A stretch of 63,995 nt of DNA, the filler included, from Caldilineae bacterium (lineage in GTDB: Bacteria > Chloroflexota > Anaerolineae > DTLA01), in assembly GCA_037446815.1 (NCBI GenBank). It is 3 parts of 3 records of this genome, joined end to end, with 100 filler letters (N's around TTAATTAATTAA, not from the genome) between each part and the next. Parts side by side here need not be neighbours in the genome. Positions count along the whole stretch, not along the records: positions 54,422 to 63,995 come from JBBIHX010000113.1; 2 more parts are not named here. The stretch is one strand, 5' to 3'. A model generated the notes under the pieces. It was not told the origin of the DNA. It saw only the letters and a program-made list of their open reading frames with translations, and did no database searches. Shown here piece by piece: positions 23,516 through 63,995 of the stretch (position 1 is its first letter; every line of letters starts with the position of its first letter). A program made the translations under genes and the position numbers.

Positions 23516-24364
23516 CTATGCGGGGTGTAGCACCCCAGCCCGCCGTGCCGACTCGCTCGCAGGCGCGGCGCCCAGCTGGCGGCTGGCCATCTTGCCCACC
23601 GCCAGGACGCGCTCCACCAGCCCGTCATCCCGAATCGCGCGGGTCATCCGGTCCACCGGCCCCGAAACGCTGATGGCTGCCACCGCCATTTGCAGGTGGT
23701 TCCACAGCGGGATGGCAACGCACATCACATCATCCTCGTGCTCGGCGTTGTCCAGCGCGTACCCGCGCTCACGGACGCTCTCCAACTCGCCCATCAGGGC
23801 ATCCACCGTTGTGATGGTATTCGCCGTGAAGCGCTTCAGGCCGCTCCTGGAGAAGAACGCGCGCACAACCGCAGGGTCCTGATACGCCAAGAGCGCCTTG
23901 CCCACCGCAGTGCAATACGCAGGCGACCGCCCCCCGACGCGCGAACTCATCAGCCCGATGGGCTGAAGTCCCTCCAGTTTCTCCAGATAGATGACTTCCA
24001 TCGTGCGGGGGTCCAGCACGGTCAGGTGCACCGTCTCTCGGGTCGCATCCCGCAAGTCCACGAGGAAGGGATACACGCGCTCGCGCACGTTGAGGTGCGC
24101 CAGGAATGTGCTGGTGGGGCGCAGAACAGCCACCCCGACGCGATAGCGCCCGGTGGCCTCGTCGTGCTCCACGTACCCTCGGCTCTGCAAAGTCGCCAGG
24201 AGGCGAAACGTCGTGCTGGGATTCAATCCCACCCGCTCGCTAACCTCCATCAGCGAAAGCGCTGGGTTCTCTGCCGAGAATGCCTCCAGCACGTCCAGTG
24301 CCCGCAGCACCGCGCGAACATGGTACCTTTCGTTATCTGTGGATTCCGTCTGCATCGGCCTCAT
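23516..24364 (-). CDS. IclR-family transcriptional regulator
   Basis: N-terminal HTH (RALDVLEAF...STTFRLLATL), ETVHL, CTAVGKALLA, RERGYALDNAE. Confidence 0.93.
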   Translation of the reverse strand: MRPMQTESTDNERYHVRAVLRALDVLEAFSAENPALSLMEVSERVGLNPSTTFRLLATLQSRGYVEHDEATGRYRVGVAVLRPTSTFLAHLNVRERVYPFLVDLRDATRETVHLTVLDPRTMEVIYLEKLEGLQPIGLMSSRVGGRSPAYCTAVGKALLAYQDPAVVRAFFSRSGLKRFTANTITTVDALMGELESVRERGYALDNAEHEDDVMCVAIPLWNHLQMAVAAISVSGPVDRMTRAIRDDGLVERVLAVGKMASRQLGAAPASESARRAGVLHPA

Positions 24365-27129: not shown

Positions 27130-27229
27130 NNNNNNNNNNNNNNNNNNNNNNNNNNNNNNNNNNNNNNNNNNNNTTAATTAATTAANNNNNNNNNNNNNNN
27201 NNNNNNNNNNNNNNNNNNNNNNNNNNNNN
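27130..27229. other. Artificial contig linker
   Basis: N-run containing TTAATTAATTAA (stop codons in all six frames). Confidence 0.98.
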
Positions 27230-38284: not shown

Positions 38285-40114
38285 ATGAACGTCTACGCTG
38301 GCCGACTACTCACCATCAATCTGTCCACAGGCGAAGCGGCCACGGAGCCGATTCCCGAAGAGCAGGTGCGGACGCACCTGCTGGGCAGCGGGCTGGCCGC
38401 CGACCTGTACTACCGCCAGATGCGGCCCGACCTGGACCCGCTGGACCCCGCCAGCCCGGTGTACGTGATGACGGGCCTGTTCACGGGCACGATGCTGCCC
38501 ACCGGGTGCAAGTTCTCGGTGTGCGGGCGCTCGCCCCTCACCGGCGTCTGGAACGAGTCCACGGGGGGCGGGTACTGGGGGCCGGAGTTGCGCTTCGCCG
38601 ACTACGACGGCATCGCCATCGTCGGGCGCGCCGAACGGCCTGTGTACCTGTGGATCACCGAGGCGGGCGCGGAAATTCGCGACGCCGAACACCTGTGGGG
38701 GCTGGATTGCTACGAGGCCGTGGAGCGCATCCGCGGGGAGACGGACCCCAAGGCGCGCGTCATCGCCATCGGCCCCGCGGGCGAGCGACTGGTGCGCCTG
38801 GCCGCCATCATGGTGGACGGGCACGAGGCGCGCGCGGTGGGCCGCGGCGGAATGGGGGCCGTCTTCGGGAGCAAGAACCTGAAGGCCATCGCGGTGCGGG
38901 GGCACGGGCGGCCCACCTACAAAGATGAGGCGGCCCTCCGCGCCTCGGTTCGTGCGAAGAACAAGGTCATCCAGGAGCACACGGTCGGGTTCACGAAACT
39001 GGGCACGGCGGGCGGCGTGGCGCGGGCCGAGCAGAGCGGCGACCTTCCCATCAAGAACTGGCTCCAGGGATCGTGGCCCGACGGCGCGGCGAAAATCACC
39101 GGCCAGACCGTCGTGGAGCGGTACGAGGTCAAGCACTACCACTGCTTTGGCTGCCCCATCGGCTGCGGCAAACTGGTCCCCCTTGGGCCGCAGGGCGAGT
39201 ACATCCACGCGCCCGAGTACGAGACGGCAGGCTCCATGGGGAGCATGTGCCTGGTGGACGACCTGGAGAGCATCATCCGCGCCAACGACATCTGCAATCG
39301 GCTGGGGCTGGACACGATTTCCGTGGGCGCGGCCATCGCCACGGCCATGGAAGCCGCCGAGCGCGGGCTGCTGCCGCCGGAGATGACGCGGGGGCTTGAC
39401 CTGCGCTGGGGCAGCCGGGCAGCGTTGGTGGCCCTGACCGAGCAAATCGGCATGAACGAGGGCCTTGGGGCGTGGCTGGGGCAGGGCGTGCGCGCCTTCT
39501 GCCGCCGACTGGGCCCTGGGGCGCGCGACATGGACGTAACCGTGAAGGGGCTGGAACTTCCCATGCACGACCCGCGCGCGTACATCTCCATGGGCGCCAA
39601 CTACGCCACGGCCAATCGCGGCGCGTGCCATCTGGAGGCCATGTGCCATTGGCGGGGCGCGGCCGGCTTGCAGTTGCAGGACGTGTGGGCGCCCGAACCC
39701 TACGACGCCCACGCCAGCGCGGGCCAGGGCAAGATGGCCGCCATCTGGCAGAACTACCTGGCGACGTTCAACCCGCTGGGCCTGTGCAAGTTCAGCATCC
39801 GCGGGCCTGTGGAGCCGAAGGATGTGTGCGAGTGGCTGGGGCTGGCGCTGGGGTGGGACATCGCCCCGGCCGAACTGTTGCGCATCGGGGAACGCCTGTT
39901 CAACCTGAAGCGTCTTATCAATGTGCGGCTGGGCGTAACGGCGCGCGATGACACCCTGCCGCCGCGCATCCTTACCGTGCCGCGCGACAGCGGCGGGGCC
40001 GCGGGCGTGCTGCCCGACCAGGAGGTGCTCCTCGCGGAGTACTATGAGGAGCGGGGCTGGGACGCCAATGGCGTGCCCACGCTGGAGCGGCTGAAGGCGT
40101 TGGGGTTGGCCTAG
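38285..40114 (+). CDS. Aldehyde:ferredoxin oxidoreductase family protein (second copy)
   Basis: RSPLTG, GRGGMGAVFGSKNLKAI, CFGCPIGC, PEYET, GLDTIS, NRGACH, DDTLP. Confidence 0.92.
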   Translation: MNVYAGRLLTINLSTGEAATEPIPEEQVRTHLLGSGLAADLYYRQMRPDLDPLDPASPVYVMTGLFTGTMLPTGCKFSVCGRSPLTGVWNESTGGGYWGPELRFADYDGIAIVGRAERPVYLWITEAGAEIRDAEHLWGLDCYEAVERIRGETDPKARVIAIGPAGERLVRLAAIMVDGHEARAVGRGGMGAVFGSKNLKAIAVRGHGRPTYKDEAALRASVRAKNKVIQEHTVGFTKLGTAGGVARAEQSGDLPIKNWLQGSWPDGAAKITGQTVVERYEVKHYHCFGCPIGCGKLVPLGPQGEYIHAPEYETAGSMGSMCLVDDLESIIRANDICNRLGLDTISVGAAIATAMEAAERGLLPPEMTRGLDLRWGSRAALVALTEQIGMNEGLGAWLGQGVRAFCRRLGPGARDMDVTVKGLELPMHDPRAYISMGANYATANRGACHLEAMCHWRGAAGLQLQDVWAPEPYDAHASAGQGKMAAIWQNYLATFNPLGLCKFSIRGPVEPKDVCEWLGLALGWDIAPAELLRIGERLFNLKRLINVRLGVTARDDTLPPRILTVPRDSGGAAGVLPDQEVLLAEYYEERGWDANGVPTLERLKALGLA

Positions 40115-49406: not shown

Positions 49407-50899
<1,493 letters not shown>

Positions 50900-52289: not shown

Positions 52290-54176
52290 ATGCACGTCAT
52301 CGGAACCGCCGGACACGTAGATCACGGCAAGTCCACGCTAGTCAAGGCGCTCACCGGAATAGACCCAGACCGCCTGAAGGAAGAGAAAGAGCGCGAGATG
52401 ACTATTGACCTGGGGTTCGCCTGGCTCACGCTCCCCAATGGCGAATCGGTCGGCATCGTGGACGTGCCCGGCCACAAGGACTTCATCAAGAACATGCTGG
52501 CGGGCGTCGGGGGGATAGACGCCGCCATCCTGGTCATCGCCGCCGATGAGGGCGTGATGCCCCAGACCCGCGAGCACCTGGACATCCTCAACCTCCTGCA
52601 GGTGCGCAATGGCATCGTCGCCCTCACCAAGAAGGATTTGGTGGATGACCCCGAGTGGCTGGACCTGGTGATGGCCGACGTGGCCGAGACGCTGGAGGGG
52701 ACGGTACTGGCGGGCGCGGACATTGTGCCGGTCTCGGCCCGCACGCGCGAGGGCATCCCGGAACTCCTCGCGGCGCTGGAGCGCATCTTGAGCGAGATTC
52801 CCCCGCGTCCGGACCGCGGGCGGCCTCGCCTTCCGGTGGACCGCGTGTTCAGCATCGCGGGGTTCGGCACCGTGGTAACCGGCACGCTAATAGACGGTTC
52901 GCTCCGCACGGGTCAGGAGGTGGAAATCCTGCCCCAGGGGCTGAAGGCGCGCATTCGCGGCCTCCAGACGCACAAGCAGAAGGTGGACATGGCCATGCCC
53001 GGCAGCCGCGTGGCGGTGAATCTGACCGGCGTGGACACCGACCAGGTTCAGCGCGGCAACGTGGTTGCGCTCCCGGGTTGGCTGCACCCGACGCTGCTGG
53101 CTGACGTGCGGCTGAAGAGCCTGGACGACGCCCCGCGCGCCCTGCGCCACGGCCAGGAGGTGGAGTTCTTCTGCGGCGCGGCGGAGGTCATGGCCAGGGT
53201 GCGGCTGCTGGAAGAAGATTCGCTCCTGCCGGGCCGAGAGGGGTGGGCGCAGGTATCGTTGAGCAGCCCGGTCGCCCTGGTGAAGGGAGACCGCTTCGTC
53301 ATCCGCCAGCCATCGCCCAGCCTCACCATCGGCGGCGGGGTCATCGTCAACCCGCACCCGGGCCGCAAGCACCGTCGGAAGCAGGCCACCGTCATCGCGC
53401 AACTGGAGACCGCCGCCCACGGCACGCCGGAGGAGATCGTCCTGCAGGCGCTGGAGTCGCCGCCGCCCCTGGAGATGGCCGACGTGCTGCGCAAGAGCGG
53501 CCTCGCCCGCGACATGCTCCGCCCGACGCTGGAGCGCCTGTTGGGCCAGGGAGAGATTATCGCCCTGGGCGACAAGGCCCTGGGCGATGCGACCTTCGTT
53601 ACCACGCCGGGCGCGTGGCAGGCCCTGGTACGCCAGGTGGCTGATTTGCTCCGGGCGTACCACGACCAGTATCCCGCCCGCGTGGGGATGCCGAAGGAAG
53701 AGGTGAAGAGCCGCCTGAAGTTGCCGCCGCGATTGTTCGCCGAGGTGATCCAGCGGGCCGCAGGCGAGGGCGCGGTCGCCGATGACGAGACCACCCTACG
53801 CCTGCCCTTGCACAAGCCCCACTTCCGCCCCGACGAGCAGGCGAAGGTGGACGCACTGCTGGCCGCCTTCCGCCGTTCCCCCTACGCCACGCCTTCGGTC
53901 GGCGAGTGCGAGCAGGCCGTCGGCGCCGAGGCGTTCAACGCGCTGGTGGAGCAGGGACGGCTGGTGAAGGTGAGCGCGGACGTGGTGTTCCTCGCCGAGA
54001 CGTACCAGGAGATGGTGGATCGCGTGGTGCGCTTCATCCAGGAGAACGGCTCCATCACCGTGGCGCAGGTGCGCGACATGTTCAACGCCAGCCGCAAGTA
54101 TGCCCTGGCGCTGATGGAGCACCTGGACCAGTGCAAGGTAACCCGCCGCGTGGGGGATGAGCGGGTGCTGCGGTGA
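52290..54176 (+). CDS. selB: Selenocysteine-specific elongation factor SelB
   Basis: [40 protein letters not shown]-terminal winged-helix [22 protein letters not shown]. Confidence 0.96.
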
Positions 54177-54321: not shown

Positions 54322-54421
54322 NNNNNNNNNNNNNNNNNNNNNNNNNNNNNNNNNNNNNNNNNNNNTTAATTAATTAANNNNNNNNNNNNNNNNNNNNNNN
54401 NNNNNNNNNNNNNNNNNNNNN
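54322..54421. other. Artificial contig linker
   Basis: N-run containing TTAATTAATTAA. Confidence 0.98.
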
Positions 54422-54431
54422 TGGGCAGATT

Positions 54432-54460
54432 TTGACAGGGAGGGGGAGTTGTGGTATAAA
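54432..54460 (+). promoter_or_regulatory. sigma70 promoter with extended -10
   Basis: TTGACA-17 nt-TATAAA, with TG at 54452-54453. Confidence 0.75.
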
Positions 54461-54465
54461 AGCAT

Positions 54466-54524
54466 TGTACCGTAATCTGATAACGTGTATCGTATTCCGA
54501 TACAACGTCTTGTACTCCGATAGG
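54466..54524. promoter_or_regulatory. Three tandem operator-like boxes with 20-bp period
   Basis: TGTACCGTAATCTGATAAC / TGTATCGTATTCCGATACA (perfect 7-5-7 palindrome) / CGTCTTGTACTCCGATAGG. Confidence 0.65.
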
Positions 54525-54599
54525 TCATATCAAGATTGACCAGCCCTGGCCAGCGGTGACCGGTCCAGTGTCGCACACACCCGACAAGGAGCGAGAACG

Positions 54600-55334
54600 A
54601 TGGCGTTGCTTAAGGTCCAAGGCCTCACCAAGTCCTTTGGGGGCCTTACGGCGATCCGGGATGTTGACCTGGAACTCCAACAAGGCGAGATTCTCGGACT
54701 CATCGGCCCCAACGGCTCCGGCAAGACGACCCTCCTCAATCTTATCACCGGCTTCCTCAAACCCACCAAGGGCACGGTTCACTACCTGGGAGAAGACATT
54801 ACCGGCCTTCCCCGATTCAAGATCGCGCAGAGAGGCATCGCGCGCACCTTTCAGTTGACCAAGTCGTTCCTGGACTTCACCGCCCTGGAGAACGTGATGG
54901 TGGGCCGCGCATACGGGCAGCAGCCCGCCAAGAACCTGGCGCAGGCGGCCGACGAGGCGCTGGAGATTCTGGAGCGCGTCGGGCTTCGCGACAAGGCGCA
55001 TGTGAAAGCCAGGAACCTGACCCTGATGCAGCGCAAGAGGCTGGAACTGGCCCGTGCATTGGCGACAAGACCGCGCCTTCTCCTGCTGGATGAGTTGATG
55101 TCGGGGCTGAACCCCGGCGAGACCGAAGAGGCCATGGCGCTGATTCGCCAGATTCGCGATTCCGAGATCACACTCATCGTTGTGGAGCACATCGTCAAGG
55201 CGATTGTGGGGCTGTCGGACCGCATCGCAGTCCTCAACATGGGCGAGAAGATTGCCGACGGCGCGCCCGCTGATGTGTGCGTGGATCCGCACGTCGTAGA
55301 ATGCTATCTGGGGAAGGCGATATGCTTGAAGTAG
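54600..55334 (+). CDS. LIV/HAAT-family ABC ATP-binding subunit (LivG-like)
   Basis: GPNGSGKTT, GIARTFQ, LLLDE, VEH. Confidence 0.92.
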   Translation: MALLKVQGLTKSFGGLTAIRDVDLELQQGEILGLIGPNGSGKTTLLNLITGFLKPTKGTVHYLGEDITGLPRFKIAQRGIARTFQLTKSFLDFTALENVMVGRAYGQQPAKNLAQAADEALEILERVGLRDKAHVKARNLTLMQRKRLELARALATRPRLLLLDELMSGLNPGETEEAMALIRQIRDSEITLIVVEHIVKAIVGLSDRIAVLNMGEKIADGAPADVCVDPHVVECYLGKAICLK

Positions 55335-56023
55335 TGGGAATTGACGCTGGATACAAGGATTTGCAGGCCCTCTGGGGAGTCTCGCTGCGGGTGAATGAGG
55401 GCGAACTGGTTGCCCTTGTTGGCCCCAACGGCGCGGGCAAGACGACGACGCTGAAGGTCATCAGCGGCCTCATCCGACCGACGGCAGGCAACGTGCTCCT
55501 GGACGGGCATTCGCTCATCAAAGAGCCGCCGCACAAGATTGTGGAACTGGGCGTCTCCCAGGTTTTGGAGGGCGGACGGGTCTTTACGGGCCTGACGGTG
55601 ATGGAGAACCTGGAACTGGGGGCGTTCAGCGCCAAGGCGCGGAAGGGTAGGGCGGAGAATCTGGAGCGCGTGTTTGCCCTGTTCCCGCGACTCAAGGAGC
55701 GGCAGCGCCAACGCGCCGGTACCCTCAGCGGGGGCGAGCGCCAGATGTTGGCCATCGGTCGGGCCTTGATGTCCAACCCGCGCATCCTTCTGCTGGATGA
55801 ACCCTCCTTCGGCCTGGCGCCGCTTCTGGTAGAGCAGATATTCCGCATGATCACGGAGATCAACAAGCAGGGCGTTGCCGTGCTCTTGGTGGAGCAGAAC
55901 GTGCGCGCCGCCCTGGAGCTGACCCAAAGGGCGTACGTGATTGAGAACGGTCGGGTGGTAGGTGAGGGAAGCGGGGAGGCTCTCCTGTCGTTTGAATCCA
56001 TTCGCAGCGCATATCTAGCGTAG
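55322..56023 (+). CDS. LIV/HAAT-family ABC ATP-binding subunit (LivF-like)
   Basis: GPNGAGKTT, LSGGERQMLAIGRALM, DEPSFGLAP, VEQN. Confidence 0.92.
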   Translation: MLEVVGIDAGYKDLQALWGVSLRVNEGELVALVGPNGAGKTTTLKVISGLIRPTAGNVLLDGHSLIKEPPHKIVELGVSQVLEGGRVFTGLTVMENLELGAFSAKARKGRAENLERVFALFPRLKERQRQRAGTLSGGERQMLAIGRALMSNPRILLLDEPSFGLAPLLVEQIFRMITEINKQGVAVLLVEQNVRAALELTQRAYVIENGRVVGEGSGEALLSFESIRSAYLA

Positions 56024-56042
56024 AAGGGAAAGCGAGGTCTCT

Positions 56043-56924
56043 ATGCTGTCGGCTGTGGCGCAGAACGTGGTCTTTGGGCTACTGGTTGGCGGCCTTTACG
56101 GGCTGGCGGCCGTTGGCCTCTCCCTGGTTTTCGGCGTTACCAAGTTCCTCAACGTGTCCCACGGCGAACTTCTGATGCTGGGCGGGTATGCCGCCTTCTG
56201 GATGTACACGCTGTTCCGTGTGGACCCCTTTTTCGGGCTTCCTCTTGTCGCAGTGCTTCTCGTGATCCTCGGGTTCATCCTGTACCGGCTGGTCTTCGTT
56301 CGCATGACGAAACTCAATGACGAGAGCAAGATTCGGAACACGATGCTGGTGGGGTTTGGGCTCGGAATCATCTTCCAGAACGTTGCGCTTCGCCTGTGGA
56401 GTGCTGACCAGAGGGGTATCACCACCACCTACTCGTCCCAAGTGCTGAAGTTCCTCGGCGTGCGGTTCCCCGTGGTGCGGGTGGCGAGCTTCCTCATCGC
56501 GCTGGTTGTCCTGGTCGCACTGCACCTGTTTCTCAAGCGAACCTATCTTGGGAAGGCGATACGGGCCACGGTGCAGGACTGGGAGGCGGCCGCGCTGCTG
56601 GGCATCGGCACCGAACGGGTCTATCTCATCTCCTTCGTCATGGGCGCGGGCCTGGCGGGGTTGGCGGGCGCGCTGGTGAGCGTGGGGTATTCCATTGAGC
56701 CGAGCATGGGGCTGGAGTGGACGCTCACGTCTCTCATCGTCATGGTGCTGGGCGGCCTTGGGAGTTTTGTGGGGACATTCGTGGCGGGGCTGCTGCTGGG
56801 GGTTACTCAGTCGCTTACGTTTCTCTGGCTGGGGGGCACCTATCGGGAGGTCGTTGCGCTGTTGTTGTTCCTTCTGGTCCTCGTTGTCCGACCGCAGGGC
56901 CTATTCGGTGTCAAGGAGGGCTAG
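56043..56924 (+). CDS. LIV/HAAT-family ABC permease (LivH-like)
   Basis: GLSLVFGV..LNVSHGE, GKAIRA, VLGGLGS, RPQGLFG. Confidence 0.92.
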   Translation: MLSAVAQNVVFGLLVGGLYGLAAVGLSLVFGVTKFLNVSHGELLMLGGYAAFWMYTLFRVDPFFGLPLVAVLLVILGFILYRLVFVRMTKLNDESKIRNTMLVGFGLGIIFQNVALRLWSADQRGITTTYSSQVLKFLGVRFPVVRVASFLIALVVLVALHLFLKRTYLGKAIRATVQDWEAAALLGIGTERVYLISFVMGAGLAGLAGALVSVGYSIEPSMGLEWTLTSLIVMVLGGLGSFVGTFVAGLLLGVTQSLTFLWLGGTYREVVALLLFLLVLVVRPQGLFGVKEG

Positions 56925-56927
56925 CCG

Positions 56928-57896
56928 GTGACTGGAAAGCGAGTTCTCTCTGTTGGCCTCATCCTTCTCGTCATCGCGGCGCTGGTTGCTCTGCCCATCT
57001 TCGTGAAGATGGAGAGCACGATCAACCTCGCGATTCTGGTTGCGCTTTACGTGTCTCTGGCTTCCAGTTGGAACATTCTGGGGGGCTACACGGGGCAGAC
57101 GAGCCTGGGGCATGCGGCGTTCTTCGGCATCGGGACGCTGGCCACGCGCATCCTGTGGTTGTCGGGATGGCCTCTGTTGGTCAGCATACTGGTTAGCGGC
57201 GTCATCGCCGTGGTGTTTGCCCTGATCATAGGGGCGCCGGCCTTCAAGTTGAGGGGGGCCTACTTCGCCATCGGGACCCTGGCCCTGGGGCAGGTTCTCT
57301 ACGTCATCGTTGGGGACCGATGGCCCATGATCACGTCCTTGCCGTCCGAGCGCCTTGCCACATACGACCTTGTGCCTCGGTACTACCTCTTCTTGGCCGT
57401 CGCGTTGCTGACGATTGGGGCGGCGTATCTGTTGGTGCATTCCAGGCTGGGGTTGGGACTGATGGCGGTGCGGGAGGAGGAAGACGCGGCGGAATCGCTG
57501 GGGGTGAGCGCGCTTCGGCACAAATTGCTGGCTTTGAGCGTAAGCGCCTTCTTTGCGGCGGCCACCGGCGGCGCGTTTGCCTACTATCACGTGGGGTACT
57601 ATCCGCAGTTGCCGTTTGGGCCCATCTGGAGTTTTGATTCGGTTACCATCGCGTACATCGGCGGGACAGGCACGATTATCGGGCCTATTGTGGGGGGCGT
57701 GTTCTACGTTCTGCTCAAGGAACTGCTCTCGCTGAAATTCGTTGAAATCCACCTGACCATATTCGGCGTGCTGTTCGTTTTGGTTGTCATGTTCCTGCCC
57801 GGAGGCTTGGTGGAGGTTTGGTCCAAGATTCGTGGGCTCTTGTCCCGAGTCTCACAGAAGCGGAAACCTACGCCAGTCGCGCAGCAGGGCAGTTGA
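56928..57896 (+). CDS. LIV/HAAT-family ABC permease (LivM-like)
   Basis: SWNILGGYTGQTSLGHAAFFG, YFAIGTLA, IGGTGTIIGP, LPGGL. Confidence 0.92.
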   Translation: MTGKRVLSVGLILLVIAALVALPIFVKMESTINLAILVALYVSLASSWNILGGYTGQTSLGHAAFFGIGTLATRILWLSGWPLLVSILVSGVIAVVFALIIGAPAFKLRGAYFAIGTLALGQVLYVIVGDRWPMITSLPSERLATYDLVPRYYLFLAVALLTIGAAYLLVHSRLGLGLMAVREEEDAAESLGVSALRHKLLALSVSAFFAAATGGAFAYYHVGYYPQLPFGPIWSFDSVTIAYIGGTGTIIGPIVGGVFYVLLKELLSLKFVEIHLTIFGVLFVLVVMFLPGGLVEVWSKIRGLLSRVSQKRKPTPVAQQGS

Positions 57897-58031
57897 GGAG
57901 GGCCTTGCTGTGGAAATCGGTGCGCATCTTTACACGAGGAGAGGAGGTTGCCTATGCGATGATTGCGTCAACCCCGAGAAGACCGACGAACAGCGATCTC
58001 AGTTTTGAACCATGCTAGAGGAGGAGTGGCG

Positions 58032-59339
58032 ATGAAATCCAAGATGTACCTTGTGATCGTAGCAGCGGTTGTAACCAGCCTGCTGCTGGGCGCGTGCGCG
58101 ACGCCTGCGCCGACGGCAACGCCGACCAAACCACCGGCCCAGCCGACAACCCCACCGGCCCAACCGACGACACCGCCGGCCCAGCCGACGGCCACAAAGC
58201 CCAAACCGCCCGAGTTCATTGAAGTCGGCGCGGTCGTTCCGCTCACCGGGCGGTTCGGCTCTCTGGGCGCCATGGTCAAGCCCGGCTACGAATTCGCCGT
58301 GGCTGACATCAACGCCGCCGGCGGCATCTACGTGAAAGAGTACGACGCGAAGATCCCCATCCGCCTCACCATCTACGACGACGAGTCGGATCCCACCAAG
58401 ACGGTGAGCAAGATGGAGACCCTGTTCTCGGAGAACAAGATCGTGGCCTACCTGGGTGGCGCAGGCAGCGATATGCACGCGGCTGCGGCTCCCATCGCTG
58501 AGAAGAACAAGGTCCCGTATCTGGGGATTGCGTTCGCGCTGTACCAGATTCACCAGAAGGGCTATAAGTACCTGTTCTCTCCGTTCCCCAAGTCGCCCGC
58601 GCAGACGCGCGACGTGTTTGAGGTCTTGAACACGCTGCCCGCCGATCAGCGCCCGACGAAGATTGCAATCTTCCAGGAGAAGACGGACTGGGGCATTGAA
58701 CTCGCCAATCTGTGGAAAGAGAATGCCGCCAAGTACGGGTACACCATCGCGGTCCACGAGGAGTACACGCCGAAGGCTAGCGACTTCTCGGCGCTGATCC
58801 TGAAGGCAAAGGATGCTGGGGCCGATGCGCTGTTCTGCGTGCCCACCATGCCCGACGGCATCACGCTGTTCAAGCAGATGGCCGAATTGGGGTGGACGCC
58901 CAAGTTCAGCCTGGTGATTCGCGCGCCCGAGAACGTGCAGTGGTCGCAGACGCTCGGCAAGATCGGCGACTACGCCACAATGTTTGCGGGCTGGCACAAC
59001 GGCGAGAAATTCCCCGGCGTGGCCGAACTGAACGCCAAGTATCAGGCGCAGTTTGGGCGGCCTGCCGACCTGCTCACCGGCCCGGCCTACGCTTGTGTGC
59101 AGATTCTGGCGGACGCCATTGAGCGCGCGGGCACGCTGGACCGAGACGCAATCCGCGATGCCATTGCGGCGACCAACATGATGACCGTGATCGGCCCGGT
59201 TACCTTCAATGCCGATGGCACGGGCAATGTGGTGAACCCGCTCTCGCAGTGGCAGAACGGCAAGTTGGAGTTGGTGTGGCCAGCCGATCAGGCTACCGCG
59301 CCTCTGGCCTATCCCGCTGTTCCGTTTGACAAGAGGTAA
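58032..59339 (+). CDS. LIV/HAAT-family substrate-binding lipoprotein
   Basis: Lipobox LGAC, PPAQPTT linker, VPLTG, INAAGG, YDDESDP, QWQNG. Confidence 0.92.
   Translation: MKSKMYLVIVAAVVTSLLLGACATPAPTATPTKPPAQPTTPPAQPTTPPAQPTATKPKPPEFIEVGAVVPLTGRFGSLGAMVKPGYEFAVADINAAGGIYVKEYDAKIPIRLTIYDDESDPTKTVSKMETLFSENKIVAYLGGAGSDMHAAAAPIAEKNKVPYLGIAFALYQIHQKGYKYLFSPFPKSPAQTRDVFEVLNTLPADQRPTKIAIFQEKTDWGIELANLWKENAAKYGYTIAVHEEYTPKASDFSALILKAKDAGADALFCVPTMPDGITLFKQMAELGWTPKFSLVIRAPENVQWSQTLGKIGDYATMFAGWHNGEKFPGVAELNAKYQAQFGRPADLLTGPAYACVQILADAIERAGTLDRDAIRDAIAATNMMTVIGPVTFNADGTGNVVNPLSQWQNGKLELVWPADQATAPLAYPAVPFDKR
58131..58193 (+). repeat. 3 x 21-bp coding tandem repeat (PPAQPTT/PPAQPTA)
   Basis: CCACCGGCCCAGCCGACAACC / CCACCGGCCCAACCGACGACA / CCGCCGGCCCAGCCGACGGCC. 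Confidence 0.85.
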
Positions 59340-59365
59340 GAGACCGACAGGGTAAGCAGACGGTT

Positions 59366-59412
59366 GCCTGCGGCGGTGTGTAGCCCCGCGGGGGTGAATC
59401 ATCGCCGCAGGC
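59366..59412 (+). terminator. Stem-loop after the SBP gene
   Basis: GCCTGCGGCGGTG...CATCGCCGCAGGC. No U-tract. Confidence 0.45.
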
Positions 59413-59470
59413 CCCGCCCACGGGAATTCTGTGGACAGACGCTGATTGAGCCCAGGAGAAGACTGATTCC

Positions 59471-60574
59471 ATGCCCGGTATCCGTCGCGTGGACGTGCCC
59501 ACCAACCGAATCACGGATGCAATCCAGCGGATTGACATGCGCAATACGGCCTACGGCCTTGCCACTCGGGGCGAGTACGGGCCGGTGGTGCAGCGGCACA
59601 TGCAGCGCACACTGCCCGAGAAGTATCCGCTGTCGGCGGCGCAGAAGGACATCGTGGACTACATGGCCGCGATGGCTGCCAACCCTGTCGCGCCGCAGAT
59701 CGCGCCGGTCCCGGCCGACCCGGAAGCGCTATCGCGCCACATGAAGGCCGTATGCCGATTCATGAAGGCCGATGCCGTGGGCATCTGCCGAGTCCCAACG
59801 TATGCGTACTACAAGTGCGACAAGCAGGGGAACCCGATAGAGCCCGCATTCCCGAATGCCATCATGATCGCCATGCGCAAGGACTGGGCAACCGTCCGCG
59901 CGTCCACGGGCAGGGACTGGATCGGAGACCCGGTTTCGTTTCAGGCGTATACGCACCTGGCGCTGGTTGCCGAGATCGTCGCCAACTATGTCAGGCGCTT
60001 GGGCTGGAACGCTTCGGCGCAGTACGGGCCGTCGTTCGTGAACCGCTACTCGGTGCTGCTGCCGCCGCTGCTTCTGTGGGCCGGCCTCGGTGAAATCAGC
60101 CGGGCGGGCATCGTGCTCAGCCCGACGCTGGGGCTGGGGTTCAAGGCGGCCGCCGTTCTTACCGACATGCCGCTGGCCCCCGACAAGCCCATAGACTTTG
60201 GGCTCCAGCGTTTCTGCCAGACTTGCCACATCTGCGCGGACAATTGTCCGAGCCATGCGATTCCCAGGGGCGACAAGGTTCTGTACAACGGCTACGAGAC
60301 GTGGAAACTGGACACGCAGCGGTGCGCGAGTTTCAATTTCACCAACGCCAAAGGCACGATGTGTAACCGGTGCGTCAAGGTGTGCCCGTGGACGGCGCCA
60401 TCGGTCTGGCCCTACAACGTGGTGCATCGTCTGGGGATGGGTTCGCGGCTGATGCAGCGCGTCGCGATCCGCCTGGCGGGCCTTCTGGACACGAACGGCG
60501 CTCGGCCGCACGAGAAGTGGTGGTATGACCTGGAGGATGTCGGGGATCGCCTAGAGTGGCGTGGCAACGGCTAG
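59471..60574 (+). CDS. Cobalamin-dependent reductive dehalogenase-like protein, short cytoplasmic form
   Basis: ADAVGIC, AGLGEISRAG, FKAAAVLTDMPLAPDKPIDFG, FCQTCHICADNCPSHAI, WKLD..RC, CNRCVKVCPW, KWW.DLE. No twin-arginine leader. Confidence 0.82.
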   Translation: MPGIRRVDVPTNRITDAIQRIDMRNTAYGLATRGEYGPVVQRHMQRTLPEKYPLSAAQKDIVDYMAAMAANPVAPQIAPVPADPEALSRHMKAVCRFMKADAVGICRVPTYAYYKCDKQGNPIEPAFPNAIMIAMRKDWATVRASTGRDWIGDPVSFQAYTHLALVAEIVANYVRRLGWNASAQYGPSFVNRYSVLLPPLLLWAGLGEISRAGIVLSPTLGLGFKAAAVLTDMPLAPDKPIDFGLQRFCQTCHICADNCPSHAIPRGDKVLYNGYETWKLDTQRCASFNFTNAKGTMCNRCVKVCPWTAPSVWPYNVVHRLGMGSRLMQRVAIRLAGLLDTNGARPHEKWWYDLEDVGDRLEWRGNG

Positions 60575-60733
60575 GAGGCAGAAGTTTCATCGTTTGGAAT
60601 CATTCGTTGAGTGATTTGTTGATTACCGAGGTTGCGCAGTGGGTGCCCACGATTCGCCGCGTCCATTCGGGCGGGCGCCGACCTGCGCAGGCCCGCGGTT
60701 CATTCTCAGAAATCAGTTTGTATGGAGGTTGCG

Positions 60734-61408
60734 ATGACGGAAACATACACGTTGGCGGAAGCCACCATGAAGGTTATCCAGGACCGCCGGAGCATCCGCT
60801 CCTTCACCGACGAGCCGGTGTCCGAAGAGGCCATCCGGATGATCCTGGAGGCAGCGCGACAGGCCCCGTCGGGTGAGAACGCCCAGCCGTGGCGGTTCAT
60901 CGTGGTGCGGGATGCCGAGACGCGTAAGGCGCTCGGAGCCATTGGCGGGGGAGGCAGCGGCCGCCGCTTCACGGCCGAGTTTGTTACCAAGAAGATGCAG
61001 GAGCGTTTCGCGGGTCTTCAGGACGAAGAGAAGAAGAAGGCGGCCTTTGAGAAATTGACGTCCGGCAATGTTTCGGCGTTTCTGGCCGACGCGCCTGTGG
61101 ATATCGTGGTGTGCGGGCGCAAGAACGTTTGGGACTTGCCCTACGACACCTCGGCGGCCATTGAGAACATGCTGCTGATGGTAACGGGGCTTGGCCTGGG
61201 CGCGTGCTGGGTCATTGCGCCGTGCATTGACGTGCGGGACGAGGAGCGGCTGCATAAGTTGCTCAACGTCCCCGACGACATCAAGATCGTGAGCATTATC
61301 GCCATCGGGCACCCGACCCGGCCGCATCGCCCGCGACCGCGCTTGCCGCTGCACGAATTGGTCTACAACGAGGTCTGGGGGACCCCGTACTACAAGGAGG
61401 AAGCATGA
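60734..61408 (+). CDS. Nitroreductase-family flavoprotein
   Basis: RRSIRSF, APSGENAQPWRFIVV, AAIENMLL..TGLGLGACW, IAIGHP. Confidence 0.9.
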   Translation: MTETYTLAEATMKVIQDRRSIRSFTDEPVSEEAIRMILEAARQAPSGENAQPWRFIVVRDAETRKALGAIGGGGSGRRFTAEFVTKKMQERFAGLQDEEKKKAAFEKLTSGNVSAFLADAPVDIVVCGRKNVWDLPYDTSAAIENMLLMVTGLGLGACWVIAPCIDVRDEERLHKLLNVPDDIKIVSIIAIGHPTRPHRPRPRLPLHELVYNEVWGTPYYKEEA

Positions 61409-61866
61409 CACGCGAGAATCTGCCCAGCGATTACGCGAATAGCGTCATCTACGAGATTCAAAAGGCATTTTGGGATGAGCGCGGCAACGGCGCCCGATTC
61501 CGGCTGACGACGGTGGGGCGCGAGTACTTCTCGGACAAGTGCCTGGCCCAAATCCACGGCGAATCGGTTGGCGAGATTGTGCAGGGCATTGGCAAGGCTC
61601 TCGCCGAGGAGGGCATCGCAGCGGGCATGTCCTACGAGGAAGAGGATCGCATCGTGCGGCTGAAAATCCCCGGCTGCCTGCATCAAAGCGTGGAGCGCCG
61701 ATTCCTCGCCGCCGGAGCCGAGCCGCTAATGTGTGTCCCCGCGAACCTGGTGGTGCTGGCGGTGGAGGCGGTGCTGAAGCGCCCGGCGGAAATCGCGGAA
61801 ATCAAGGTCGGCGACGACGGCTGCGAGGTTACGCTCGTTCTGTTTGAACCGCGGCCGGGACTGTAG
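61405..61866 (+). CDS. Hypothetical protein, possible V4R/H-NOX-like ligand-binding fold
   Basis: 153 aa. Spaced Cys pattern GCLH...MCVP...GCEV. Overlaps the nitroreductase stop (ATGA). Confidence 0.6.
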   Translation: MTRENLPSDYANSVIYEIQKAFWDERGNGARFRLTTVGREYFSDKCLAQIHGESVGEIVQGIGKALAEEGIAAGMSYEEEDRIVRLKIPGCLHQSVERRFLAAGAEPLMCVPANLVVLAVEAVLKRPAEIAEIKVGDDGCEVTLVLFEPRPGL

Positions 61867-61884
61867 ACACGGAGGATAAGAGGC

Positions 61885-62784
61885 ATGGACAAAGTCGTTA
61901 CTCTCTCCGAAGCGGTTGCGTCCATTCCGAGCGGCGCTCATGTGGCGCTGTCGGGCTTCGCCATCACCCGGGCTACCATGGCCTTCGCTGCCGAAGTGCT
62001 GCGGCAGGGCATCCGCGACCTGACGGTGTCGCAGTGCGTCGGGGCGATGGACGCGGACCTGCTGGTGGGCGGCGGCGCGGTCTCCCGCATCCTGTATGGC
62101 GGCGGCTCGCTGGACCGCTTCGGCCGCCTGGCCTGCGTGAACCGCGCCATTGAGGAAGGGAGCATCGTCGCCGAGGAATACAGCAGCCTCTCCATGGTGT
62201 TCCGCTACATGGCGGGGGCGCTGGGGTTGCCCTTTGTGCCCATTCGGTCGTTGCGCGGCTCCGACACGCTGGCGCATCTGGAGGAGGTCGCCCCGTCGGC
62301 CACAGCCTACGTGGACGACCCGTTCACCGGTGACCGCTGGCTGGCCCTGCGGCCGCTGAATCCCGATGTGGCGGTGGTGCAGGTGCAGGTGGCCGACCCG
62401 GAGGGCAACGCGTGGATTTACGGCCCGCGATGGGACAACGAGGAGCAGGTCAAGGCCAGCAAGCGAACCATCGTCATCACGGAGCAATTGGTGCCGACGG
62501 AAGTCATCCGCCGCGATCCCGAGCGCACGGTGATTCACGGGTTCCGCGTGTCGCACGTGGTGCGCCTGCCGTTCTCGGCGCACCCGACAGCCGTGTACCG
62601 CGCCTATGACTACGACGCGGATCACATCCGCCTGTACGCGGAAGCCGCGAAGACTCCCGAAGGGATGCGCGCGTATCTGGACAAGTACGTGTACGGCGTC
62701 AAGGATCACTGGGAATACCTGGAACTCCTCGGCGGGGTGCGGCACCTGACGAAACTGGCCGCGGATCCCATCCTGGGCTACTGA
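61885..62784 (+). CDS. Family I CoA-transferase subunit A (GctA/PcaI-like)
   Basis: DKVVTLSEAV, DLLVGGG, AGALGLPFVP, DPFTG, PDVA, ADPEGN, AHP...YDYD. Confidence 0.9.
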   Translation: MDKVVTLSEAVASIPSGAHVALSGFAITRATMAFAAEVLRQGIRDLTVSQCVGAMDADLLVGGGAVSRILYGGGSLDRFGRLACVNRAIEEGSIVAEEYSSLSMVFRYMAGALGLPFVPIRSLRGSDTLAHLEEVAPSATAYVDDPFTGDRWLALRPLNPDVAVVQVQVADPEGNAWIYGPRWDNEEQVKASKRTIVITEQLVPTEVIRRDPERTVIHGFRVSHVVRLPFSAHPTAVYRAYDYDADHIRLYAEAAKTPEGMRAYLDKYVYGVKDHWEYLELLGGVRHLTKLAADPILGY

Positions 62785-62798
62785 TGGAGGCACTGGAC

Positions 62799-63569
62799 AT
62801 GAGCGAAGATGTTGCATATACTCCATTTGAATTGATGGCGGTGGCCGGCGCTCGCGAACTCAAGAACGGGGAGATCGTGGCCGTTGGGCTGGGGCTGCCC
62901 GTCGTGGCCACTTTCCTGGCGAAGCGCACCCACGCGCCGGACATTACCATCATGTTTGAACTGGGCGTGATTGACCCCGAGCCGATCCATACGGGCGTGG
63001 GGCTGGCAGACCCTCGGGTCTGGTACCGCGCCAAGGTGCTGAGCAGTTTCGTGGATATGCTGGGGTCGGTGCTGCACGGCGGGCGCGTGGACGTGGGCTT
63101 CCTGGGCGGACTGGAAACCGACGCCTATGGCAACCTGAACACGACGCTCCTCGGCGACCCGAAGGGCAAGTTCCGGCACTTCGTGGGGAGCGGCGGGGCG
63201 AATGACATTGCGTCGTCCTCGCGCCGAACGATTATCATCATCCGGCACGAGGAGCGCAAGTTGAAAGAGGCGGTGTCGTTCATCACCAGCCCTGGATACA
63301 TCCGAGGCGACGGGCAACGCGCCCAGGCGGGCCTGACGGGCGGGCCGAGCCGCGTCATCACCGACAAGGCCATCTTCGGGTTTGACCCCGAGACCAAGCG
63401 CATGACGCTGCTGTCCATCCACCCGGGGTGCGCGCTGGAGGATGTGCTGGGGACGATGGGGTTCAAGCCCATCGTGCCCGCGCATGTGCCCTTCACGGAG
63501 CCGCCGACGCCCGAGCAGGTGCGCATCATCCGAGAAGAGATTGACCCCGAGGGGATTTACTCCGGCTAG
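62799..63569 (+). CDS. Family I CoA-transferase subunit B (GctB/PcaJ-like)
   Basis: VGLGLP, catalytic Glu in MFELG, DVGFLGG..D.YGNLN, GSGGANDI, FITSPG. Confidence 0.9.
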   Translation: MSEDVAYTPFELMAVAGARELKNGEIVAVGLGLPVVATFLAKRTHAPDITIMFELGVIDPEPIHTGVGLADPRVWYRAKVLSSFVDMLGSVLHGGRVDVGFLGGLETDAYGNLNTTLLGDPKGKFRHFVGSGGANDIASSSRRTIIIIRHEERKLKEAVSFITSPGYIRGDGQRAQAGLTGGPSRVITDKAIFGFDPETKRMTLLSIHPGCALEDVLGTMGFKPIVPAHVPFTEPPTPEQVRIIREEIDPEGIYSG

Positions 63570-63606
63570 GGGACGCGCGTGTGAGTCTATCAAGGAAGAG
63601 ACGATT

Positions 63607-63828
63607 ATGCCTTACGTGGTAACCGACAAGTGTGAACAGTGTGGCATCTGCGTGGCAGGATGTCCGGTGGGCGCCATCACCGAAGAAGCCACCAAGTCCG
63701 AGATCCACCCGGATATCTGCATAGAGTGCGGCACGTGCCACGACAATTGCCCGTTTGAGGCCATCATCTTCGTGGAGGAGGAAGAGGTCGCGGATAGCGG
63801 CGCGGTGGGCGCGGCCAAAGGGGCGTAG
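63607..63828 (+). CDS. 2x[4Fe-4S] ferredoxin
   Basis: CEQCGICVAGCP and CIECGTCHDNCP. 73 aa. Confidence 0.9.
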   Translation: MPYVVTDKCEQCGICVAGCPVGAITEEATKSEIHPDICIECGTCHDNCPFEAIIFVEEEEVADSGAVGAAKGA

Positions 63829-63933
63829 AGCGACGCCGTTCGCTTTCGGCTTGGGGCAGTTGCGGCCGACCGCGCGGTTCAATTAAGGGTAGGTGGTGCA
63901 GAGTCCTCGCCGGGTCATCTGCGCCTTCCTATG

Positions 63934-63966
63934 TGGACGCCACCCTGGTTGTTGGGGTGGCGTCCA
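63934..63966 (+). terminator. Hairpin downstream of the cluster, followed by the start of a REP
   Basis: TGGACGCCACCC...GGGTGGCGTCCA, then GAGATTCCTCGCGGCTTC at the window end. Confidence 0.45.
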
Positions 63967-63995
63967 TGCTTCGGCGGGAGATTCCTCGCGGCTTC

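Follow-up and report, generated by a model that had tools for sequence, protein, structure and literature searches.

The operon described here comprises eleven genes on the plus strand of a 63,995-nucleotide stretch of DNA (hereafter the window) from a metagenome-assembled genome (MAG) of a Caldilineae bacterium (Chloroflexota, Anaerolineae; GCA_037446815.1), and it is built of three modules that are also found apart in relatives: a five-gene importer (module A), a gene for a single-domain homologue of the reductive dehalogenases (RdhA; module B) and a set encoding a nitroreductase-fold flavoprotein, its 153-aa partner, a two-subunit CoA-transferase and a ferredoxin (module C). We consider it reasonably probable, if well short of certain, that the three act as an importer, a catabolic cytosolic dehalogenase and an independent flavin/CoA-transferase/ferredoxin set, respectively. 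An earlier, sequence-only reading of this DNA had proposed eleven co-oriented genes behind one promoter and an operator array; all of these elements were recovered as described, the genes being the following.

54600-55334 (+): LivG-like ABC ATPase (ABC_tran and BCA_ABC_TP_C; LivG model 218.9 bits, under its cut-off)
55277-56023 (+): LivF-like ABC ATPase (probable start ATG 55322)
56043-56924 (+): HAAT permease, LivH/UrtB-like (BPD_transp_2, E 5.8e-40)
56928-57896 (+): HAAT permease, LivM/UrtC-like (BPD_transp_2, E 1.6e-35)
58032-59339 (+): substrate-binding lipoprotein (Peripla_BP_6; signal peptide, lipobox LLLGAC, Pro/Thr-rich tether)
59471-60574 (+): single-domain cytosolic RdhA homologue, 367 aa (TIGR02486)
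60734-61408 (+): nitroreductase-fold flavoprotein, approximately 224 aa (GGAGG ribosome-binding site ahead of ATG 60734)
61405-61866 (+): 153-aa protein with a putative V4R/Bet3/H-NOX-type fold (start overlaps the nitroreductase stop by 4 nt)
61885-62784 (+): GctA-like CoA-transferase alpha subunit (CoA_trans; 1poi_A, E 1.2e-48)
62784-63569 (+): GctB-like CoA-transferase beta subunit (CoA_trans; catalytic Glu59, GSGGAND motif)
63607-63828 (+): 2x[4Fe-4S] ferredoxin, 73 aa (true start 63607)

The first five genes, encoding two LivG/F-like ATPases, two BPD_transp_2 permeases and a Peripla_BP_6 protein in one operon, make up a complete HAAT (LIV-type) importer, and its association with the RdhA gene is strongly conserved. 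We compared 38 loci carrying the RdhA gene (the window, L001-L036 and L058), in which open reading frames (ORFs) were picked by cross-locus conservation and then clustered. The binding-protein gene lies directly 5' of the RdhA gene, on the same strand, at 35 of the 38 loci, the exceptions being L008, where the RdhA gene heads the same operon, L013, where a spurious ORF call falls between the two, and L019, where the locus edge is reached. The complete ATPase-ATPase-permease-permease-binding protein-RdhA run is present at 24 loci, and several others are cut by contig ends. This near-invariant coupling of an Anaerolineae RdhA to one importer orthogroup is a new observation. The four-gene block encoding the nitroreductase, the 153-aa protein and both CoA-transferase subunits, by contrast, is found at only 13 of the 38 loci; at the remaining 25, no CoA-transferase, nitroreductase or ferredoxin was detected within the stretch compared, which extended up to 10 kb on each side. 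Conserved synteny in Chloroflexota MAGs, to which the sequence-only reading had looked for confirmation, thus holds for the binding protein-RdhA pair but not for the block. Even where the block is present, its position varies: it lies downstream of RdhA in the window, L001-3, L014 and L023, upstream of the importer in L007, L011, L012, L013 and L018, between RdhA and the importer in L008, and 9 kb off in L025.

The same picture emerged from a survey of 300 genomes sampled from the class around the relative G001. A profile of the 153-aa protein matched 27 genomes at E <= 1e-5, 19 of which, scoring at least 209 bits, were taken as containing orthologues, and RdhA was matched in 26 genomes at E <= 1e-40, nine of them at 541 bits or more. 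All nine RdhA genomes also hold the 153-aa orthologue, in two cases on a different contig, and no RdhA orthologue was detected in 10 of the 19 block-bearing genomes, where, these being MAGs, true absence is unproven. Among 11 stretches carrying the block that were compared further, nine from RdhA-less genomes and two from genomes with RdhA on another contig, the block is intact in every case and the ferredoxin gene was detected in ten. Importer genes with products 55-75% identical to those of the window adjoin the block in five stretches (L121, L123, L125, L127 and L129); the two stretches that reach the binding-protein gene encode a protein 64-69% identical to the window's, and in L125 and L127 this gene is followed by other genes and no RdhA. 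The block in these stretches is also accompanied by cupin, IolN, aldehyde:ferredoxin oxidoreductase (AFOR), IclR and tannase genes. This distribution indicates that RdhA is an optional add-on to the importer and that the nitroreductase/CoA-transferase/ferredoxin block is not a private electron supply of RdhA. Two central proposals of the sequence-only reading are therefore not supported by the comparison, namely, a single pathway in which a CoA ester is made and then dehalogenated, and a dedicated role of the nitroreductase and ferredoxin in feeding electrons to RdhA: the block occurs at 13 of 38 loci and stands beside the same importer without RdhA in relatives, and the nitroreductase is fused to a V4R-fold domain elsewhere. 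In a separate pairwise comparison, L125 (G224:C22) and L008, whose binding proteins are 93% identical, share the order nitroreductase block, importer, IclR, cupin; L008 has RdhA at the operon head and no RdhA orthologue was found in G224, a contrast that points to recent gain or loss of RdhA.

The product of the RdhA gene matches the RDH model TIGR02486 with 177.9 bits (cut-off 160.35) and the QueG model TIGR00276 with 38.8 bits (cut-off 200), so that the comparison of RdhA and QueG hidden Markov model scores that had been proposed as a check assigns it to the former family and not to the latter. In a search of solved structures, residues 2-357 align to residues 264-620 of NpRdhA (4ras; E 3e-79), with weaker matches to PceA-type enzymes (8q4h, 4e-28; 4uqu, 7e-25) and to QueG (4e-4 and 7e-3). 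The eight Fe-S cysteines are all present, C249, C252, C255 and C259 within a CxxCxxCxxxCP motif, followed by C285, C298, C301 and C305, and the second set is invariant in 84 of 84 alignment rows. Because the ORF cannot be extended upstream of 59471, the protein has no twin-arginine translocation (TAT) leader, and the 'RR' of its N-terminal MPGIRRVD (residues 5-6) aligns with internal NpRdhA residues 266-270 rather than constituting a TAT motif; nor does the protein contain a transmembrane segment. With no TAT leader and with PceA-type similarity weaker than that to NpRdhA, it does not resemble the respiratory (PceA-type) RdhA. By its sequence, the protein is a cytosolic RdhA of the NpRdhA/BhbA branch and not a QueG, in agreement with the leaderless, cytoplasmic and non-respiratory enzyme envisaged earlier. 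The companion claim, that there is no rdhB-like anchor gene, fared less evenly: no gene for a small membrane protein was seen within the operon or beside it on relatives' longer contigs, although no search with an RdhB model was made and a distant rdhB could lie elsewhere in the genome, and the operon resides on its own contig of 9574 bases, so that the absence of rdhB from that contig says little by itself.

Since it covers only NpRdhA residues 264-620 and has neither the vestigial domain nor a fused reductase, the protein falls into the 'simplified cytosolic type', RdhA-like proteins averaging 395 aa that have been described from Chloroflexota and Desulfobacterota (PMC12219181). A Chloroflexi clade without TAT leader and RdhB (DEH-C11) has been placed as sister to the NpRdhA/BhbA enzymes (PMC4959651), and rdhA has been noted in an Anaerolineales single-cell genome (PMC4959059). 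The family is large: 1187 proteins match at E <= 1e-10 among 7680 candidates, and the best 120 of these are all at least 64% identical to the window protein; among the matches listed, the usual names are 'reductive dehalogenase', given to many, and 'epoxyqueuosine reductase', given to some, while '4Fe-4S dicluster domain-containing protein' is applied to a few and 'ferredoxin' to one. The three closest genomes contain only one RdhA each above the cut-off and, hence, do not belong to specialised organohalide respirers. One relative, G004, has a separate 466-aa RdhA (L081:1381-2781 (-), on G004:C12) with a TAT-like N-terminus, TRREFLK, and 242.5 bits against the RDH model, in addition to the cytosolic form; the RdhA orthologue of G042 (G042:C65:48596-49663) has one in-frame TAG.

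A tree of 84 rows, built by a quick method from the window, 80 related loci (of 94 relatives found) and three outgroup frames from relatives' genomes, without the NpRdhA, BhbA, PceA and QueG reference sequences, places the window RdhA within an Anaerolineae clade of 38 rows (support 100). This clade is followed by short forms from Dehalococcoidia, Desulfatiglandales, Acidobacteriota and Bacillota and then by a 31-row, mainly alphaproteobacterial clade holding long two-domain forms, and the TAT-bearing RdhA of G004 is distant (branch 4.7). The roles of the active-site residues are known from ligand structures of NpRdhA (PMC7565698), and the alignment shows that its Tyr426, Lys488 and Ser422 correspond to Y160, K225 and S156 of the window protein, which are kept in 37, 38 and 37 of the 38 Anaerolineae rows, respectively, and, more broadly, across all cytosolic clades. 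The pocket is different. The equivalent of Arg552, which in NpRdhA hydrogen-bonds the substrate hydroxyl and the replacement of which by Leu cripples the enzyme (PMC7565698), is Asn (N289) in 38 of 38 Anaerolineae rows and Arg in 31 of 31 rows of the alphaproteobacterial clade; the equivalent of Ala419, which lines the NpRdhA pocket for the second, non-ligating bromine (PMC7565698), is Asp (D153) in 37 of 38; Lys307 and Phe290 of NpRdhA are not conserved in the window RdhA either. Retention of the residues that bear the chemistry argues for a working RdhA, whereas the altered pocket (Asn289, Asp153) suggests that the substrate differs from 3,5-dihalo-4-hydroxybenzoate; it could, for instance, be a halocatechol or another compound whose second ortho position carries a group that donates a hydrogen bond (OH or NH2).

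NpRdhA and the window protein can be aligned end to end over the catalytic domain, with both Fe-S motifs and the Tyr/Lys/Ser set kept, and both are cytoplasmic enzymes without TAT leader or RdhB. However, the window protein has no counterpart of the vestigial, cobalamin-binding-like N-terminal domain of approximately 260 residues, differs at the positions of Arg552, Ala419, Lys307 and Phe290 and is coupled to a HAAT importer. BhbA, from the bromoxynil pathway of Comamonas sp. 7D-2, is likewise catabolic and non-respiratory, removing halogen from an aromatic compound ahead of ring cleavage (PMC12219181, PMC4959651), and, by its published description, has a fused C-terminal NAD(P)H reductase that the window protein lacks; accordingly, any electron donor of the latter must be a separate protein. 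The simplified type of PMC12219181 and the DEH-C11 clade of PMC4959651 agree with the window protein in size (approximately 395 aa on average) and in having no vestigial domain, TAT leader or RdhB, but their neighbours, as those papers present them, are IclR/MarR regulators, beta-oxidation or galactose genes and tRNA genes, with little synteny, whereas the window clade shows the near-invariant importer coupling and the fixed Asn/Asp pocket. The RdhA type itself was already known from metagenomes; what is new is its tight coupling to the importer, the pocket peculiar to the clade, the island with its modular make-up and the enzyme that combines a nitroreductase with a V4R-fold protein. The sequence-only reading did not recognise the gene combination as a described pathway, and we found no description of it in the literature searched either, although part of the synteny may already appear in the neighbourhood tables of PMC12219181 and in Figure S4 of PMC4959651.

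The nitroreductase-fold protein and the 153-aa protein appear to form an enzyme of their own. The best NCBIfam match of the former is BluB (TIGR02476), with 95.7 bits against a cut-off of 150, and its orthologues in five relatives score 88-98 bits, none passing; 3 of 14 control genomes contain a hit over the cut-off. Its matches among solved structures include BluB (2isj, 70 bits) and uncharacterised nitroreductases (89 bits), and the resemblance to iodotyrosine deiodinase, measured as similarity scores, is weak (6pz0, 52.8 bits; 3tnz and 3gb5, 38 bits). The 153-aa protein has no Pfam or NCBIfam match, and an alignment of 12 sequences reveals invariant C91, H93, E97, C110 and C140. A structural model of it (mean pLDDT 78) found no match in the PDB at E <= 0.001 with Foldseek. 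VIA-align, by contrast, returned TRAPPC3/Bet3 (Z 8.8, rmsd 4.1, 136 aligned), BcsD (8.5), MJ1460 (2OSO; Z 7.5, rmsd 3.9, 122 aligned), YslB (7.1), PoxR (5FRU; Z 7.0, rmsd 4.6, 135 aligned), DmpR (6IY8; 6.8) and H-NOX (6.6), all values that the tool rates as middling. The model thus supports, at a middling level, a V4R/Bet3/H-NOX-type fold, as the label 'V4R-like' had suggested, and the similarity to V4R, phenol-sensor and Bet3 proteins (MJ1460, PoxR, DmpR, TRAPP) extends over most of its length. Pfam V4R (PF02830) matched none of 12 members of the family, and the Atlas clusters nearest to the protein carry the newer Pfam names RdxA_C and MJ0207 on 10-49% of their members; a literature search on MJ0207 returned no papers. 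What distinguishes the protein from the V4R-domain proteins is its association with a nitroreductase, of which it is a separate partner in the window and a fused C-terminal domain elsewhere.

This association is strict: the two genes are adjacent at 13 of 13 RdhA loci with the block and at 11 of 11 further loci. A word-index search turned up no longer proteins in which the 153-aa protein is fused, but an exhaustive profile search, which yielded 126 representatives, subsequently did; among seven longer members picked by eye, three have a full nitroreductase domain N-terminal to the V4R-fold part and one a partial domain, and in one of the fusions the nitroreductase part shares 54% identity with the window protein across 216 aa. 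The predicted complex of the two window proteins scored 0.56, against 0.00 for the best of three controls; of 80 solved complexes, 58 attain this mark, as do 2 of 110 mismatched pairs, but a pass at or below 0.60 counts as weak. The prediction runs agree in at least 78% of contacts and give the partner a pLDDT of at least 87. From the gene overlap, the fusions and the complex prediction we conclude that the two proteins are subunits of one flavoenzyme, and the constant company of the CoA-transferase and ferredoxin suggests a ferredoxin-driven reduction of an acyl-CoA; as a speculation, its substrate might be the side-chain double bond of a hydroxycinnamoyl-CoA released by neighbouring esterases. 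Distant paralogues of the 153-aa protein (24-30% identity; L110-L114, L119 and L120) are not next to nitroreductases and, consequently, are uninformative on the window operon. They adjoin genes for DUF4388 and Roadblock/LC7 proteins, joined at one locus by a small GTPase of Ras/Arf-like type and at another by a response regulator, neighbourhoods that recall the pairing of eukaryotic TRAPP (Bet3) with Rab GTPases. A 167-aa nitroreductase-like frame with one in-frame TAG at the same place occurs in G001 (G001:C64:3464-3916), G002 (G002:C102:3265-3717) and G003 (G003:C130:2115-2561).

Both CoA-transferase subunits match PF01144 and have GctAB as their best solved relative (1poi_A, E 1e-48; 1poi_B, E 1e-51); Glu59 of the beta subunit aligns with the Glu of the GctB 'vESG' motif, a position at which the decarboxylase AibB has Asn or Ser, and all 12 orthologues compared have both this Glu and the GSGGAND motif. 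By these residues, the enzyme is a genuine family I CoA-transferase of the GctAB type, as originally proposed, in a fold family that also includes the decarboxylase AibAB and the ring-opening hydrolase IpdAB. The window enzyme shares the catalytic Glu and the GxGG motif with GctAB of Acidaminococcus fermentans (1POI), but its gene context is unrelated to glutamate fermentation. The ferredoxin gene follows the CoA-transferase genes at 12 of 12 RdhA loci that reach that far (11 called loci and the window, all having module C).

How the modules would operate can be outlined from these assignments. The importer of module A would bring in an organic solute, for which a phenolic or aromatic compound is the most likely candidate. 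The soluble RdhA of module B, reduced to the catalytic domain and, hence, probably a homodimer, would remove, in the cytoplasm, a halogen adjacent to a ring hydroxyl from imported compounds that are halogenated, by the mechanism of NpRdhA, namely, through a cobalt-halogen adduct, with the proton provided by the Tyr160/Lys225 pair. The electrons would pass from reduced ferredoxin via the two clusters to cobalamin; for NpRdhA, ferredoxin together with a reductase and NADPH sustains the reaction in vitro (PMC7565698). Module C would convert an acid to its CoA thioester, which would then probably be reduced with ferredoxin-derived electrons, acting on the same substrate family or its products, independently of RdhA.

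The genes surrounding the RdhA loci of relatives bear on the nature of the substrate. At the loci of the window's closest relatives, the operon is followed by alaS, ruvX and yceG (L001) or preceded by MttB-family and pyridoxal phosphate (PLP)-enzyme genes (L002). Elsewhere, frequent neighbours are a cupin, a 304-aa protein of no family, a SnoaL-like protein, a CHMI-type isomerase, two PIG-L/LmbE-type deacetylases, LysR regulators and a second LIV-type importer, and a BD-FAE esterase and a tannase/feruloyl esterase are also encoded. The IclR regulator near relatives' RdhA has BhcR and PcaR/PobR as its best models, both under the cut-off. Catechol 2,3-dioxygenase is present at 17 of the 38 loci (TIGR03211, 329.5 bits; cut-off 320.2) and a tungsten-type AFOR at 24, the latter beside a small protein that looks like MoaD/ThiS by eye and for which Pfam found no family. 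Gene content of this kind identifies the neighbourhood in relatives as a predicted aromatic/phenolic catabolic island. A creatininase-family gene at L009:1988-2953 and 19 further loci (cluster c6) encodes an IolN equivalog (479.9 bits; cut-off 245), that is, a 3-dehydro-scyllo-inosose ring-opening hydrolase, and is also found in G001-G003, G005 and G224, the window's closest relatives carrying it elsewhere in the genome. We had considered this neighbour as a phloroglucinol ring-opening enzyme and rejected the idea upon its identification as IolN; the phloroglucinol ring-opening enzyme belongs to the 'cyclase' family (PMC10470551). The IolN equivalog, a predicted hydrolytic ring-opening step within the aromatic island, adjoins the cupin, the 304-aa protein and the tungsten-type AFOR. 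Elsewhere in the window, the other contigs contain no island genes, only distant paralogues, two of AFOR (approximately 29% identical to the island AFOR; 18835-20553 (-) and 38303-40027 (+)) and one of the IclR-family gene (38%; 23591-24316 (-)).

The operon occupies a contig of its own. An N run at 54322-54421, with ttaattaattaa at its centre, precedes the first base of the contig at 54422, and the N/TTAATTAATTAA joint sets off 54422-63995 as a separate metagenome-assembled contig; further N runs lie at 27130-27229 and 49954-49963. The window thus consists of several contigs placed end to end, and genes across the joints are not true neighbours. One such gene, on the preceding contig, encodes SelB (52290-54176 (+); TIGR00475, 358.6 bits; cut-off 242), which, because of the joint upstream of the operon, may be no real neighbour of it. 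Three non-coding features were recognised on the operon contig.

54432-54460 (+): sigma-70-like promoter with an extended -10 element (TTGACA 54432-54437, 17 nt, TGgTATAAA; -10 hexamer 54455-54460)
54466-54524 (+): three operator-like units in tandem (imperfect palindromes of the type GTAYCG-N5-YGATAC)
59366-59412 (+): intercistronic stem-loop after the binding-protein gene (no T tract; z -2.4; 3 of 200 shuffles fold equally well)

The promoter is near-consensus and, together with the operator-like repeats, is kept in L001 and L002, the nearest of the relatives examined; a consensus promoter scan did not list it, because the scan demands T as the last base of the -10 hexamer. The palindrome type recurs in the more distant L008, upstream of both the RdhA gene and the nitroreductase gene, and a pattern search of 80 loci recovered it only in the window, L001, L002 and L008, the window's sub-clade, other matches looking random. 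The cognate regulator gene is not on the operon contig. Intergenic gaps are tight except on either side of the RdhA gene, with approximately 131 nt upstream, which hold the stem-loop, and approximately 160 nt downstream. An Rfam scan of the contig (E <= 0.1) gave zero matches and, hence, no cobalamin riboswitch. Five DNA sequencing runs from four studies, labelled as sediment, hot-spring and subsurface metagenomes, are listed as containing the stretch at a small share, and no RNA run was listed among them.

Several observations weigh against the reading of the operon as an importer with a catabolic dehalogenase and an independent module C. Dehalogenation by the window RdhA is suggested by its family membership, and the entire 38-row clade lacks the Arg with which NpRdhA holds the hydroxyl of its substrate. 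When 50 binding proteins were placed in a tree, the 37-row orthogroup (support 100) took in both sequences from RdhA-less loci, and the binding protein of one RdhA-less genome is 93% identical to that of the RdhA-bearing L008; with the importer orthogroup being the same with or without RdhA, the solute taken up is not necessarily a halogenated one. Among solved structures, those most similar to the binding protein bind amino acids, not aromatic acids, and neither the window's operon contig nor the loci of its three closest relatives contain the aromatic neighbours. Moreover, catechol 2,3-dioxygenase requires O2 and tungsten AFOR enzymes are O2-sensitive, so that the island may not be one pathway, and the ferredoxin gene travels with module C, not with RdhA, and its product may therefore serve the flavoenzyme only. 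The point about the importer also favours the view that the RdhA homologue is not a dehalogenase but carries out another cobalamin- and cluster-dependent reduction of an imported, non-halogenated natural aromatic, given that not only the importer but also the catabolic island is unchanged with or without the RdhA gene. This view, which we regard as unlikely yet worth keeping in sight, has a precedent in QueG, an epoxide reducer of the same superfamily, and accords with the loss of the Arg552 equivalent and the gain of Asp in the pocket (37 of 38), with the abundance of the family (1187 proteins) and its occurrence in MAGs the titles of which name groundwater and other sources, and with the treatment of the short forms as 'RdhA-like' (PMC12219181). 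It is at odds with the conserved Tyr/Lys/Ser catalytic set of NpRdhA and with the scores against the RDH and QueG models, the first passed and the second far under its cut-off. To our knowledge, no short-form cytosolic RdhA has been assayed so far, which counts for this view, and no non-dehalogenating member of the NpRdhA branch is known, which counts against it. A related and equally tentative proposal is that of an importer-coupled cobalamin reductase with a re-tooled pocket, either non-dehalogenating on a plant phenolic or specific for halogenated catechol- or aminophenol-type products that enter ring cleavage, beside a new ferredoxin-linked nitroreductase/V4R enzyme that would work with the CoA-transferase on an acyl-CoA.

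The integrated pathway, in which an imported halogenated acid is converted to a CoA thioester and dehalogenated by RdhA with electrons from the nitroreductase and ferredoxin, appears distinctly improbable. It would account for the presence of all genes in one operon under one promoter, for the palindromes before both the RdhA and nitroreductase genes of L008 and for the 153-aa orthologue in all nine sampled RdhA genomes, and it fits the need of cytosolic RdhAs without a fused reductase for an external reductase and ferredoxin (PMC7565698; PMC12219181). Against it stand the 25 of 38 RdhA loci without CoA-transferase, nitroreductase and ferredoxin in the compared stretch, the separation of RdhA and block on different contigs in two of nine genomes and the 10 of 19 block genomes without a detected RdhA orthologue, in which the block stands by the same importer. 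The V4R-fused nitroreductase, furthermore, resembles a substrate-handling enzyme rather than a ferredoxin reductase, and we know of no nitroreductase-fold enzyme that acts as a ferredoxin reductase, which also speaks against this pathway. A different role for the same protein, as a BluB-type 5,6-dimethylbenzimidazole synthase supplying the lower ligand of cobalamin, is suggested by its best NCBIfam match and by BluB among its solved relatives; the scores under the cut-off in the window and in all five relatives, the occurrence of the block in genomes without a detected RdhA orthologue, and the constant coupling of the nitroreductase to a CoA-transferase and its fusion to a V4R-fold domain elsewhere make such a role very unlikely indeed. 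We attach as little credence to respiratory organohalide reduction with RdhA as a membrane-coupled terminal reductase: the protein is an RdhA family member and G004 has an additional TAT-bearing RdhA, but the window protein lacks a TAT leader, for which its ORF would leave no space, and is without a transmembrane segment; neither the window nor the longer contigs of relatives show an anchor gene beside it; its place in the tree is within the cytosolic clade, remote from the TAT-bearing form; and the operon shared with an importer implies a cytoplasmic substrate.

Uncultured Chloroflexota contain short cytosolic RdhA homologues in abundance, and the three-module operon and its relatives give a testable handle on them, in the form of the binding protein of a dedicated importer, a fixed pair of pocket changes and an operon-encoded ferredoxin. 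It also corrects the tempting view that every redox gene of such an operon serves the dehalogenase; the nitroreductase/V4R-fold pair, apparently a two-part enzyme in its own right, is worth characterising for itself. If natural halogenated phenolics are indeed dehalogenated by this route, the Anaerolineae would enter the non-respiratory halogen cycle.

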